DNA from: Saprospiraceae bacterium
GTDB lineage: Bacteria > Bacteroidota > Bacteroidia > Chitinophagales > Saprospiraceae
DNA: 41,997 nt
Reading direction: 5' to 3'
NCBI GenBank assembly: GCA_031373565.1
Contig: JANMMV010000697.1
Location: forward strand, 1-41,997
Under the pieces are notes generated by a model that saw nothing but the letters and a program-made list of their open reading frames with translations, did no database searches and had not been told where the DNA came from. Made by a program: the position numbers and the translations under genes. Below, one piece after another: positions 7,094 to 11,043 of this stretch. Every line of letters begins with the position of its first letter. The first letter of the stretch is position 1.

Positions 7094-7423
7094 TTAGATA
7101 TTTACTTTTAGATTGGTTGTTCAATGCATTATATTTAATATTCAAAAGTTGTATTGCTCACATACTCGATTCATTTACGAACAATTGATTTTAACATAAA
7201 AGTAACCCTTTTAATCAAATATTATCAACAATAAGCTGAAATAGATAAGCATACCCATCGATGCTCCCGCCATGATTTAACTAATTCTATGGCTGTCCTT
7301 TTAGCAAATTAATGCCAACACGTGCCTGCATTCATCAATTTTGCCTTTCGAGAAATAGCAACTTATTTCACTTCTGTTTCATAAAGGGTTACTTAAATAT
7401 GATCATTTGAGCGTGTTGAGCCA

Positions 7424-7736
7424 TTAATCTGCGAAAGCATAGTTGGCTTTGTTGACAAGATTTCCAGTGAGTAAATTGACTAATTGCTTGCTTGTTTTAA
7501 TCATTTTGGTGAATTTGGATACGTCCGAGTATTCTCGCCATAAACAAAATGAGCTTTGGTAAATGTTTGTAGGTATTCTTGAACCCAGAATACGCATTAG
7601 AAATGAATCCCATAGCTTGACAAGCAACGGGGTGAACTTTATGAAAATCTGACTTCATATTTGTCATCGTTCTTACTTCGACAAGCTCAGTACGACGCAT
7701 TTTTATGTAGTCAACGTGAAAAGGCCTCATGAACAA
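7424..7736 (-). pseudogene. Two overlapping short ORFs in different frames; possibly a frameshifted gene remnant next to the IS
   Basis: ORFs 7497-7736 and 7424-7627 overlap out of frame on the same strand. I recognise no family. They sit directly left of the IS110 non-coding region. Confidence 0.2.
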
Positions 7737-8037
7737 CTGCCTACCTTTAGATTTGCATTTTAAATAAATTAATCATATTATGATTATTATTATGTATTAC
7801 AATGGGGGTTCTAGGGGGTGTTGAAAAGTGTTAATTTTGTGGAAAAGTTGAGACAAAGTGTGGCAAATTATACTGCCTACTAAGTAAACCTTAAGCGGCG
7901 TTTTAATCCACACTTTGCTCAAAAGGTTAAAAAGACAGATAGAAAATTAGGGTAAAACCCATTAACAAGGTAATCGTCCTTCACCTTTTATCTCAACTCG
8001 TTCGTAAAATTTATTAATTCTTAAAACCGTTATTATC
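7737..8037 (+). ncRNA. Candidate bridge/seek RNA region of the IS110 element (unverified)
   Basis: A 300-nt ORF-free stretch lies immediately 5' of the recombinase ATG. It has a perfect 10-bp inverted repeat CAAAGTGTGG (7854-7863) / CCACACTTTG (7908-7917) around a 44-nt loop, and a small GGGT-AAA-ACCC hairpin near 7951-7961. Confidence 0.3.
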
Positions 8038-9063
8038 ATGTTTAAGTTTATCGTCGTTGCCGACATTTCAAAAGACAAAATCAATTTTGCTCTACGTTTT
8101 GTAAACGACTTTCCTCTTGAAAGAGAAGTAGAGAATACAACTTCTGCTCTCAACAAATTTATAAAGGAAGTTCAATCATTAGTTAAAAGCATAGCCAAAG
8201 AAAAGAAGGCTGAATATTCTCTTGAATTTATCATGGAGCATACGGGTATTTATGGCAATCTTCTTGTTGAATGCTTGGCTGGACATAAGGTAGCAATGTA
8301 TGTTGTTGCTGGACTCGAAATCAAAAATAGCACTGGGATCAGTCGCGGTAAAAATGACAAAATTGATGCTCGACGTATAGCAGATTATGGGGTAAGATTT
8401 GCCGACAAATTGAAGCCTTATACCTTGTGTGATCAGACACTATCTGAACTCAAGGGTTTGAATACTTTAAGAGCCCAAATGGTAAGGATCAAAGCACAAC
8501 TAACACAAGCTAAGGATGATAATAAAAAATTTCAAAGTAAAGAACTTCTAAAAAAGTCTGAAAAAATAAAAAAGCCAGTAGTGAATGAATTAGATGAAGC
8601 TATTGAGAAAATTGAAGTCCAAATGCTGGAGTTAATAAAAAGCGATGAGTCAATAAATGAAAATTATAAGATCGCTCAATCAGTCCCTGGGGTAGGTAAA
8701 ATTGTAGCAGTAGCATTCATATGTGCTACTAATAATTTTACAAAGTTTCATTCAGCCAAAGCATTAGGTAGTTATTGTGGCGTAGTACCATTTGGCAAGG
8801 AGTCAGGGAGTTATAAAGGAAAGGACAAGATTTCTCCTATTGCAAATAAAGCATTAAAAACGCTGCTGCATCTTGGAGCTGTTGCCAGTATTAGTGGCAA
8901 AAATGCTTTCGCAGTATATTACCAAAGAAAAGTGGCAGTGGATAAGAAGAATAAAATGCTCGCCCTTAACAATGTAAGGAATAAAATAGTAAAAACAATG
9001 TTTGCGTGCATCAAAAATAAAACCAAGTACATTGCGGATTATTCGTTTTCATTTGCAGCCTAA
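8038..9063 (+). CDS. IS110-family transposase/recombinase (DEDD RuvC-like N-domain + Transposase_20 C-domain)
   Basis: DEDD elements: VVADISKDKINFA, MEHTGIYGNLL and KNDKIDARRIADY. The C-domain has SVPGVGKIVAVAFICATNNFTKFHSAKALGSYCGVVPFGKESGSYKG, typical of IS110/IS1111 enzymes. Confidence 0.9.
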   Translation: MFKFIVVADISKDKINFALRFVNDFPLEREVENTTSALNKFIKEVQSLVKSIAKEKKAEYSLEFIMEHTGIYGNLLVECLAGHKVAMYVVAGLEIKNSTGISRGKNDKIDARRIADYGVRFADKLKPYTLCDQTLSELKGLNTLRAQMVRIKAQLTQAKDDNKKFQSKELLKKSEKIKKPVVNELDEAIEKIEVQMLELIKSDESINENYKIAQSVPGVGKIVAVAFICATNNFTKFHSAKALGSYCGVVPFGKESGSYKGKDKISPIANKALKTLLHLGAVASISGKNAFAVYYQRKVAVDKKNKMLALNNVRNKIVKTMFACIKNKTKYIADYSFSFAA

Positions 9064-9214
9064 TCCGCAAAATGTGGATAAATCTGTGAATAGACTTTAT
9101 ACAACCAATTTTATCAACATAAAAAAAATCAGTTATACATTAAAAAAAAATAAATTAATACTTGTTTAAACCATAGAAAACGCCACGAGCCAGTTGTTCG
9201 TGGTTCAGGCCCTT

Positions 9215-9235
9215 AAAGCCATTTCGTATGGCTTT
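9215..9235 (+). terminator. Weak hairpin downstream of the IS110 recombinase gene
   Basis: AAAGCCAT-TTCGT-ATGGCTTT forms an 8-bp stem with a 5-nt loop. The T tract after it is short (the stem's own TTT, then CTT). Confidence 0.3.
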
Positions 9236-9333
9236 TCTTAACGGCCATCTTGTGTATCATTTTTATCCAGATTTCTTGCTAAACACAAAATTCTACACAA
9301 TCCCTAGACATCATGTGGTTGTCTTATGCAAAC

Positions 9334-9492
9334 CGCGGGTTATGTACGGGTTATGTACGAGTTGTATACGGGTTGTGTACGAGTTGTGTACGAGTTGTAT
9401 ACGGGTGAGCTACGGGTTGCATACGGGTTGCATACGGGTGAACTACGGGTGAGCTACGGGGCAACGTCGGGACAACGTCGGGACAACCTCGG
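9334..9492. repeat. Tandem array of 14 complete 11-bp units plus one partial unit, consensus TACGGGTTGTG, in strict register with no indels
   Basis: I parsed the units by hand; unit starts are at 9334, 9345, 9356 ... 9477, 9488. CG at unit positions 3-4 and G at position 6 are invariant. The variable tail drifts from TTATG to TTGTG/TTGTA, then TGAGC/TTGCA, then ACAAC along the array. Confidence 0.9.
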
Positions 9493-9885
9493 AAAAATGA
9501 CGCACTATCTATGGGACCGGATAACGATTTATGTCGTCCTGAAATAGCTAAACATGTTAAGCAATTAATCCAAAAACAACTAAACAGTTTGTAAAATTAA
9601 TCCAAAAAAACTAAAAAACTCATTTTTTTATTTATAGTAGATTAATAAATTTGCGATACTGAATAAACATCAAAAATAGGTAATTTTTTGGTCGATGATG
9701 CAATCTCGTATTCTCACCAAAAGCAAAATAATCTATGGCATAGGCTCGTAGGTATTCTTTAACTTTGTCGCATGTAGCCTTCAGATCGTGCATAATTGGC
9801 ATATTCAAGGTCGTTGACAATGCACTAATATGCTAATTTTCAATAATATCTGCGATCTTTTTTTTAATTTTTTAAGCTCAACACG

Positions 9886-11043
9886 TCACTTTATTCTATT
9901 GTATTTTTTTAACAAATCTATGACTAATTTATGCGGGAGACCATAAGCTTTGTTTCCATTAATGCCTTCCATAGTTTCAGCCGCAACCATAGCATTAATA
10001 ATGGCTTCTTCAACCGCCTGCACAGTCGCATCAAATAAAGGGTTGATTAAATCATTGGGCAATTCGGCCAATTTTGTGAAATTTTCTCGCTGAAAAGCGG
10101 ATGGGTTTGCAGTGGAAAATGCAATAAAAATATCACCGGAACCGTTTTCACCACGGCCTCCAACGATACCTATTCCCAATGGAACTCTTGTGGCAATTCT
10201 TTTAAGTTGATGGGGCAGTAAAGGAGCATCAGTAGCCACTACTACTATAATGGAACCATCTCCTAATTGATAAGATGGCGGAGCTTTAAATTCGTAGTTC
10301 ATCGTATCTTTTAATTCCTTTCCGATAGGAACACCGGCAATTGTAAAATTCTTTTTACCTCCAAAATTTGATTGTACCAAAACCCCAACCGTGTAAGTAG
10401 AGTCTTTAACTTTTACAACTCTAGAAGAAGTACCTGTGCCACCCTTAAAGCCCAAACACATCATTCCTGTGCCGCCACCCACATTTCCTTCTTGTAAATA
10501 TCCCGGTTTGGCACTGTCTAGTGCTTCATAAGCATTTTCTTCCTTTACATGGAAACCATAAATATCATTTAAAAAACCATCATAGGTTTCTGCTACCACA
10601 GGATAGGTGTACCAAAAGTCTTCATTGTACCAGCCCGTTTTCACATACCATTTTAACACGGCATCCCTTACCACACCCACGCTGTTGGTATTGGTTATCA
10701 TAATGGGGCCTTCTAGAAACCCTGATTCTGTTATCCACGTGGTGCCTGTCATTTCGCCGTTGCCATTTAACGAATACCAATTGGCAAAAACGGGGTTGTT
10801 GTTTCTGCCCCTCGGCAATATAGCTGTAACACCTGTTCTGATGGGTCCTTTACCTCTTACGTTTTGGCCTTGGCCTGCAATAATAGTACTATATCCAACT
10901 TCCACACCTTTGACATCGGTTATGGCATTATATTTACCAGTAGTACCGTTGAACGGAATTCCGATGTCTCGGGCCCTGGGATTTTGGGATAAAACGGCAA
11001 AAGGGATGAGGATAAAGAGCAGGAAAATGTTATTTCTTCTCAT
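9886..11043 (-). CDS. Secreted DmpA/BapA-type aminopeptidase (peptidase family S58 / P1)
   Basis: Start taken at MRRNNIFLLFILIPFAVLSQ (signal peptide); the ORF is open to 11103. Family hallmarks: ITDVKGVEVGYSTI, GVTAILP, GGGTGMMCLGFKGGTGTSSR and IIVVVATDAPL. Confidence 0.8.
   Translation of the reverse strand: MRRNNIFLLFILIPFAVLSQNPRARDIGIPFNGTTGKYNAITDVKGVEVGYSTIIAGQGQNVRGKGPIRTGVTAILPRGRNNNPVFANWYSLNGNGEMTGTTWITESGFLEGPIMITNTNSVGVVRDAVLKWYVKTGWYNEDFWYTYPVVAETYDGFLNDIYGFHVKEENAYEALDSAKPGYLQEGNVGGGTGMMCLGFKGGTGTSSRVVKVKDSTYTVGVLVQSNFGGKKNFTIAGVPIGKELKDTMNYEFKAPPSYQLGDGSIIVVVATDAPLLPHQLKRIATRVPLGIGIVGGRGENGSGDIFIAFSTANPSAFQRENFTKLAELPNDLINPLFDATVQAVEEAIINAMVAAETMEGINGNKAYGLPHKLVIDLLKKYNRIK

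Follow-up and report, generated by a model that had tools for sequence, protein, structure and literature searches.

An 11-bp tandem array beside an IS3-family right-end relic in a Saprospiraceae genome, and its pairing with this IS lineage across Bacteroidota

Introduction

Why should a bacterial genome carry a run of 11-bp units in unbroken register within a patch that is otherwise poor in genes, and is such an array a functional DNA site or a product of the mobile elements around it? The question is raised by an array in the window analyzed here, the whole stretch of 41,997 nucleotides that covers positions 1–41,997 (forward strand) of contig JANMMV010000697.1 of the Saprospiraceae assembly GCA_031373565.1. 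A first-pass annotation, made from the sequence alone, described the array as lying next to an IS110-family element and proposed that it might be related to the insertion target or the 3' end of that element, or that its period suited cooperative protein binding or intrinsic curvature. Long simple sequence repeats of prokaryotes with units of 5–11 nt are distributed unevenly among lineages and are unexplained, according to those parts of PMC4679880 that summarize Mrazek et al. (2007), and G-rich heptamer repeats have been documented (PMC4692102). The assembly is a fragmented metagenome-assembled genome of 868 contigs (4.49 Mb, 38% GC), and the copy numbers given below are therefore lower bounds. 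Contigs, loci and genomes are designated by C, L and G numbers, respectively.

Results

The array and its sequence

The array comprises 14 full units, one every 11 nt from 9334, and ends in the partial unit CTCGG at 9488 (Table 1); the strict register originally described is borne out both by the sequence and by the register print. Positions 3–4 are CG and position 6 is G in every unit of the window array, with G or A at position 5, and thus the CG..G core reported as invariant is indeed so. On the minus strand the units are of the GTTGTCCCGAC, GCTCACCCGTA, TGCAACCCGTA and CATAACCCGTA types. Tandem Repeats Finder (TRF) reports a period of 11 at 9336–9439 (9.5 copies, 83% matches, score 108) and again at 9457–9492 (92% matches), together with a weak 33-bp higher-order period (score 139). 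CGNG recurs in register over as many as 14 consecutive units, as compared with 2–3 units when the window is resampled 200 times under a first-order Markov model. Having a unit of no more than 11 nt and a length far beyond chance, the array is a long simple sequence repeat. The GC content is 0.53 in the array and 0.25–0.33 on either side, in agreement with the GC-richness noted at first, and the GC skew of the array is +0.37. The order of the blocks, with two TTATG units, four TTGT(A/G) units, a block of TGAGC, TTGCA and TGAAC units and three (G/A)CAAC units, had also been read correctly, and the growth by local in-register duplication that was deduced from it is supported by this block structure and by the variation in unit number between homologous copies. 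Two open reading frames that cross the array (9228–9452 and 9326–9547) have no Pfam match and are open because the units contain no stop codon; they are repeat artefacts, as had been annotated. In a search for variation in unit number between strains at this locus, two exact-protein look-ups and one metagenome scan for the junction gave no match.

Table 1. Features of the mobile-element patch that contains the array (positions are those of the window)
Feature	Position	Strand	Basis or remark
IS982 3' end: terminal inverted repeat 7411–7427, last ~25 codons, second partial N-terminal coding copy	7411–7584	-	Homology to C830
Element B, left part (~265-bp hairpin-bearing repeat), nested in the IS982-derived element	7585–7744		Uninterrupted on C296 and C385
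IS110-family element, transposase gene 8038–9063	7745–9179	+	Inserted in the hairpin loop of element B
Element B, right part	9180–9278		Comparison with uninterrupted copies
Linker on the far side of the array, including GCTAAACACAAAAT	9279–9333		Kept in sister copies on C549, C155 and C767
11-bp tandem array, 14 units and a partial unit	9334–9492	+ (G-rich strand)	Sequence, TRF, register print
Degenerate sequence that resembles an IS3-type terminal-repeat tip, between relic and array	9503–9523	-	Sister consensus TGACATTGTCCCATAGATAGTG, judged by eye
IS3-family right-end relic ("post" module)	9532–9640	-	77.5% identity to the L029 IS3
IS982 5' end: terminal inverted repeat 9886–9870, leader, first ~35 transposase codons	9674–9886	-	Homology to C830

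Units 7–14 of the plus strand present eight consecutive GGG tracts with 8-nt loops, one tract every 11 nt. Loops of this length are long for stable quadruplexes. The array might nevertheless act as a nucleic-acid structure, either as a plus-strand G-quadruplex, of the kind that is documented for G-rich intergenic repeats in Xanthomonas and Nostoc (PMC4692102), or as a repeat-containing RNA. We consider this very improbable because most of the sister arrays described below lack GGG, the strands fold no better than their shuffles (z = -0.86 and -0.95), and the module adjacent to the array has no consensus structure (alifold on 11 copies, energy 0) and no Rfam match, a search that covered the window and seven related loci. 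A structured RNA family was rejected on the same results.

The IS110-family element and its target

The right end of the IS110-family element is at 9179, and the 155 bp between it and the array are occupied by another repeat and a linker, so that the array is not next to the element as had been stated. The transposase is assigned to the family by a match to NF033542 (143.4 bits, cut-off 140). Uninterrupted targets on C296 and C385 place the insertion point between ...ctgcctAC and gcc..., in the loop of the hairpin that belongs to element B, a repeat distinct from the array. The second assembled IS110 copy, on C396, which is the only other IS110 end in the assembly, abuts a different hairpin and has no array, and some 26 other arrays have no nearby IS110 sequence. 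That the array is a target or an end part of the adjacent IS110-family element was suggested by their proximity and by the known insertion of IS110-family elements in repeated sequences; because the array neither abuts the element nor recurs at the other copy, this proposal was rejected and we regard it as scarcely credible. The first-pass annotation itself had held that a lack of linkage to IS110 copies elsewhere would count against it, and C396 and the other arrays show that lack. The broader idea that the array is related to the end or target of an IS does stand, but the element concerned is, as described below, the right end of an IS3-family IS and not IS110.

On C396 (locus L071, 1468–2251), the IS110 sequence ends at the contig edge and its flank is the hairpin tcgaagtttgcaacttcga, which lies directly upstream of a 191-residue Y1_Tnp/IS200-like (RAYT-type) gene. 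This flank suggests that IS110 may target REP-like hairpins in this genome. Element B is itself dispersed, with ~20 partial and at least three full copies in the genome (for example C296:7085–7347 and C385), and on C689 an 11-bp array of the GCACACTTATA type is followed immediately by the left part of element B.

An IS982-derived element carries the array

The genome contains, on C830, a full-length 1037-bp master IS with perfect 17-bp terminal repeats, ACGTGTTGAGCTATTAA. Its transposase matches NF033520 (178.6 bits, cut-off 130), has DDE_Tnp_1 domains and belongs to the IS982 family, the members of which are ~1 kb long with terminal repeats starting with AC and variable target duplications, for example 7 bp for IS1187 (PMC7335449). 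Comparison with this IS identifies 7411–9886 of the window as a non-autonomous derivative of it. The terminal repeats, GCGTGTTGAGCCATTAA at 7411–7427 and ACGTGTTGAGCTTAAAA at 9886–9870, match those of the master copy, and homology to the parent covers IS positions 1–222, the last ~83–85 nt and a partial N-terminal piece, with no intact transposase. In place of the transposase interior, the derivative has an AT-rich module (9493–9640), the array and a conserved linker. The IS982 ends at both sides explain three stray open reading frames, 9632–9820, 7424–7627 and 7497–7736, the latter two being out of frame. The first of these was considered as a gene and rejected; it corresponds to the start (~35 codons) of the IS982 transposase gene, and its copies have stop codons and indels that are not multiples of three.

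The derivative is dispersed, the genome having 25 matches to its 5' end, 13 to its 3' end and 22 to its internal module, and the relic-plus-array unit is present in about 15–20 copies of 70–82% identity. A complete sister copy of 624 bp on C270 has a 7-bp target duplication, TAATTTA, and two different 11-bp arrays, and a short form without an array on C266 has an 8-bp duplication, TAAAGTAA; these sizes fit those of the IS982 family (PMC7335449). No target duplication was found at the window copy, the flanks of which, catttga and cacttta, have 4 of 7 positions in common; its two ends may therefore derive from separate copies. Base 9886 is both the first base of the terminal repeat and the last base of the TGA stop codon (9886–9888) of an S58 peptidase gene, and thus the insertion is flush with the end of that gene. 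The S58 orthologues in G007 and G008 (79–81% identity) have another gene directly after them, indicating that the repeat patch lies at a break in synteny and has no orthologous locus there.

The array lies outside the tip of an IS3-family right-end relic

Within the AT-rich module, 9534–9612 corresponds to positions 1604–1683 of a complete 1687-bp IS3-family element at L029 (77.5% identity). The tip of this relic is at 9532, where the plus strand reads TGTC--GTCCTGAAATAGC, and the array starts 40 bp outside it. The relic contains two degenerate direct copies of a subterminal unit. The tip-like sequence that lies between relic and array (Table 1) is of a type that was not found to be general in other lineages. 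The end motif has a 28-nt consensus, ACCTGTATAGCTATTTTAGGACGAGACA, with 15 instances listed in this genome; the window copy, which runs from 9557 to 9530 on the minus strand, is diverged. When metagenomes were scanned with the last 21 nt of the motif, 61 loci were found, the majority of them in soil, rhizosphere and wastewater. Six loci, L029, L097, L109, L114, L121 and L124, have a complete IS of 1574–1688 bp in which the motif forms the right terminal repeat; the first of these was obtained from a genome scan and the other five from the metagenome scan. These complete copies have orfA and orfB, TG...CA ends and, where preserved, 3-bp target duplications, and orfB encodes an IS3-family transposase (NF033516, 231 bits, cut-off 160). 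The genome under study keeps just the last 85–115 bp of the IS, at 18 or more sites, and a phylum-wide scan for the left tip gave only 4 loci in 401 genomes.

Pairing of the IS3 right end with 11-bp arrays

An array was called where a 44-nt segment within the first 132 nt of a flank had an identity of at least 0.70 at lag 11. In the genome under study, every instance of the 28-nt motif that has downstream sequence is followed by an 11-bp array, and with a looser motif this holds for 14 of 19 IS3 relics. Among non-redundant metagenome flanks of the IS3 right end, 20 of 44 have an 11-bp array, as compared with none of 29 when the call is made 400 nt further out at the same loci, none of 50 on the IS side and none of 2000 random 132-mers of this genome. 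With six other periods, only one of 51 flanks reaches the threshold, and that is a heptamer. The array begins 0–27 nt from the IS3 tip in 17 of the 20 array-bearing flanks. The consensus units are unrelated across lineages (for example CATAGCAAAGC, GTTCCCACTGA, ACCAAACGCAC, CTGGGAATTGC and TTCGATTTAGG) while the period stays at 11. A variant tip, TGACCCGTCC..., was found at four loci that belong to other families of the class, and three of them show this geometry. The pairing of the right end with an 11-bp array is thus a general feature of this IS3 lineage in Bacteroidota, irrespective of the unit sequence. An origin of the units as copies of the IS3 tip was rejected, the similarity being no higher than that of random 11-mers (4.6 of 9 positions as compared with 4.7 in the null). 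Left-end flanks, a small set, have an 11-bp array in one of six and none of three cases.

At L145 (G023:C15, 140–290), the left-end flank of a complete-looking IS3 has an array with a period of 10 bp, of the GGACAAAATA type, ~40 nt from the tip. Proteins that share an N-terminal motif, G-x-[VI]-G-[ND]-[IM]-x-[YF]-Y-K, are encoded beside three different array or IS3-end loci: L032 (4048–5022) and, by sequence, L044 (2859–3836), together with L114 (6118–6828) and L136 (from 594 nt beyond the tip onward); the coordinates for L044 and L114 refer to reverse-complement views. The L032 protein has no Pfam match.

Variation among sister arrays

The array is not unique to its locus. Approximately 27 arrays with a period of 11 were found genome-wide, detected as 30 regions, whereas periods of 9, 10, 12, 13 and 14 give 1–8 regions each, and a scan for two GTCGGGACAAC units found the window's array type in six Saprospiraceae species. 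These other Saprospiraceae contain a dispersed element of ~280 bp, type "b", that is free of IS3 sequence, often has the array at its end and keeps the order of units across copies and species. The sister arrays of this genome have blocks in a shared order, which on the sense strand of the element is GTTGTCCCGAC, GCTC(A/C)CCCGTA, then NNNAACCCGTA, GATACTCCGTA or GATACTTAATA and sometimes GCACACTTATA. The sizes of the blocks vary from copy to copy and occasional 10-nt units on C341 and C406 break the register, a signature of slippage or unequal exchange and not of strict selection for phase. Some sister arrays, with TATTAAGTATC and GCACACTTATA units, lack the CG..G core entirely. Many contig ends coincide with 11-bp arrays. 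The genome also has 7-, 8- and 9-bp arrays and 22 arrays of 21-bp units of the AGGTACTTCGTGAGACTCCTC type that total ~4.6 kb (for example C130:6200–6549, C231:881–1223 and C406:1–60); on C406 the 21-bp array abuts an 11-bp array.

These comparisons bear on the proposal that the array is a functional phased DNA site, either a platform for cooperative protein binding or bent DNA that modulates a promoter, and is kept by selection. A period near the helical repeat, the invariance of the core in the window array, the retention of GTCGGGACAAC units in six species with the conserved unit order of type "b" and the presence of promoter-like TTTG/TAnnTTTG motifs adjoining some arrays are consistent with such a site, as is the promoter activity of BrickBuilt, the closest published analogue (PMC4596501). 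In a rough wedge model, the predicted curvature of the window array exceeds that of 99.5% of random 159-mers from the genome, in accord with the curvature that had been proposed, but it stands only at the 30th percentile when shuffled units are arrayed in tandem, and TACGGAGTATC and GTCGGGACAAC, the units found most often in the sister arrays, are nearly straight. Intrinsic curvature as a selected property of the family was therefore rejected, being generic to 11-bp repeats and low in the common sister units. A role of the arrays as upstream promoter elements was also rejected because they have no orientation bias to the flanking genes (13 versus 9 downstream, 14 versus 13 upstream) and only about half of the copies retain the promoter (-7) motif. 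A bias of G-rich repeats towards positions after stop codons was looked for and is absent from this array family. The arrays are accompanied by no DNA-binding gene and, given also the sister arrays that lack the core or break the register, we consider it improbable that the array is a site of this kind.

Order of events at the IS3 end

The constancy of the period beside the IS3 tip could arise in two ways. The arrays may be older than the insertions, with the IS3 lineage inserting preferentially at one edge of an array in a fixed orientation. This account, to which we give somewhat less than an even chance, is supported by four sets of loci. (i) At L121, a complete IS3 is located within an array and has units on both sides. 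(ii) At L029, a 3-bp duplication, AAT, is flush with both IS3 tips, and 10 nt separate it from the start of the array. (iii) L081 and L140, the latter from the genus-mate G015, are homologous; the order at L081 is IS3 end, TAA, a 12-nt end-like tip, array and a small gene, whereas L140 has the flank, a 16-nt tip, array and the small gene of L081 without any IS3, and the arrays have 3.5 and 5.5 units, respectively. (iv) L042 and L044 are paralogues in one genome that have a common array, one with IS3 and one without it. Since the unit sequences are unrelated, such homing would need recognition of the period or shape of the DNA and not of its sequence; we know of no mechanism for target recognition of this kind. 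An end-like tip before the arrays, which would explain homing, is clear only in L081 and L140 and shows no general enrichment. At L137 (G204:C10, 331–570), three IS3-type tips in the same orientation lie within 240 bp beside one array, a pile-up of ends that suggests repeated insertion at one spot. A conserved 65-residue open reading frame (MSKFSR...) is found at L140 (G015:C11, 1609–1806), L142 and L081, ~35 nt downstream of an array of the GATAGTGTATG type, which comes after a 12–16-nt IS3-type tip; the frame beside the L140 array has no Pfam match.

Alternatively, the IS3 end could make the arrays, repeated nicking by the transposase at the right (donor) end and repair synthesis into the flank duplicating about one helical turn per round, in which case the window array would be a fossil of this activity and any flanking sequence could become an 11-bp array. 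In the IS3 family, asymmetric use of the right end as the donor is established for IS2. A constant period with unrelated unit sequences would be expected on this account, as would arrays that start so close to the tip and are absent 400 nt away. Tandem duplications of 10–11 nt of the tip occur in 5 of 44 flanks (L075, L088, L126, L127 and L133), and those in L088 and L133 are in phase with the array; 23-nt tip duplications are present on C269 and C424. The arrays are also mainly on the right-end side, for which there are few left-end flanks to compare. On the other hand, the homogeneity of the units has no polarity, the proximal and distal halves having values of 0.808 and 0.811, respectively (Wilcoxon p = 0.86), and growth of the array next to the tip was rejected on this ground. 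The units on both sides of the IS at L121 and the flush duplication at L029 also argue against generation, as do arrays that have no IS3 remnant (the type "b" elements of other Saprospiraceae, C713 and C24 here), and IS3-family elements are not known to have such an activity. We therefore consider generation rather unlikely; the weight that is left after homing and generation have roughly these shares lies with other or mixed histories.

In either case, one Bacteroidota IS3 lineage would be mechanistically coupled to DNA with an 11-bp period, irrespective of its sequence, the transposase reading the period or shape of the target, or the processing of the donor end creating tandem duplications of one helical turn in the flank, and the window array would be a fossil that was later amplified by an IS982-derived transposon. 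Such coupling is conceivable but doubtful.

Discussion

The array is probably a minisatellite within layered mobile-element debris, a reading that includes the account in which arrays pre-exist and the IS3 lineage homes to them, and no host function is indicated for it. The layers can be put in order. The interior of the transposase of an IS982 element was exchanged for cargo, namely the last ~110 bp of an IS3 and an 11-bp array, and transposition of the IS982 type, with target duplications of 7–8 bp in sister copies, spread this relic-plus-array unit to some 15–20 loci, where the copies then drifted to 70–80% identity. The unit numbers later changed in register and in blocks, probably by slipped-strand mispairing or unequal exchange. 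Afterwards, the hairpin repeat entered the window copy, and the IS110 was inserted inside that repeat.

A minisatellite with a 23-nt unit is present in the BrickBuilt MITE of Porphyromonas gingivalis (Klein et al. 2015, PMC4596501). This MITE is similar in being a non-autonomous Bacteroidota element with a spacer-less tandem minisatellite between a unique leader and tail, and in being present in multiple copies that are always intergenic and vary in unit number. It differs in the length of its unit and in having small inverted-repeat ends of its own with no identified parent IS, and it is not reported to be associated with an IS3 end, in contrast to the window array. The IS982 family and its MITEs (Fayad et al. 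2020, PMC7335449) share with the system described here the ~1-kb master, AC-starting repeats, DDE transposase and 7–8-bp duplications, and their deletion derivatives that retain just the ends resemble the window element. The latter is unlike IS982 MITEs in carrying foreign cargo, an IS3 end and a minisatellite, and in having no recognizable target duplication; without its nested inserts it is ~785 bp, which is large for a MITE.

Of other IS3-family elements, IS1397 and ISKpn1 target REP/BIME sequences and IS911 inserts beside sequences that resemble its own ends. Like the lineage described here, these elements recur, in a fixed orientation, at intergenic repeats of a single kind and form end-to-end pile-ups (here L081 and L137), but they use a conserved sequence or hairpin, whereas the repeats described here share only the 11-bp period. 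Direct repeats of 11 bp are also known from the parC centromere of plasmid R1, where they are iterons bound by ParR. The arrays resemble parC in their contiguous 11-bp direct repeats in helical phase and differ from it in their dispersal on the chromosome, in having no par or rep genes nearby and in the lack of conservation of their units. A plasmid centromere or iteron array was rejected for the window, where the neighbours are a sensor kinase, the S58 peptidase and transposase remnants and the unit sequences vary freely. The repeats of the type treated by Mrazek et al. are like those described here in being long intergenic arrays of short units that are uneven among lineages; in the parts of PMC4679880 that deal with them, heptamers dominate, and neither an 11-bp class of the present kind nor coupling to an IS end is described. 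A literature search of incomplete coverage gave no report of a class of 11-bp arrays coupled to an IS3-family end.

The analysis resolves a 2.8-kb gene-poor patch that had been unexplained into a stack of four mobile elements, and it removes the false lead of the array as an IS110 target. It also provides a handle on a class of bacterial repeats, long arrays with units of 5–11 nt, that has long been noted without explanation: about half of the copies of a defined IS3 lineage border at one end, on its outer side, on an array of one such class, in which the period of 11 bp is fixed and the sequence is free. The short-read assemblies break at these arrays, which matters for the binning and annotation of Saprospiraceae from wastewater and soil. 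If the IS3 lineage homes to arrays, this would be target recognition by the periodicity of DNA, and if it makes them, the arrays would be a new mutational by-product of copy-out/paste-in transposition.
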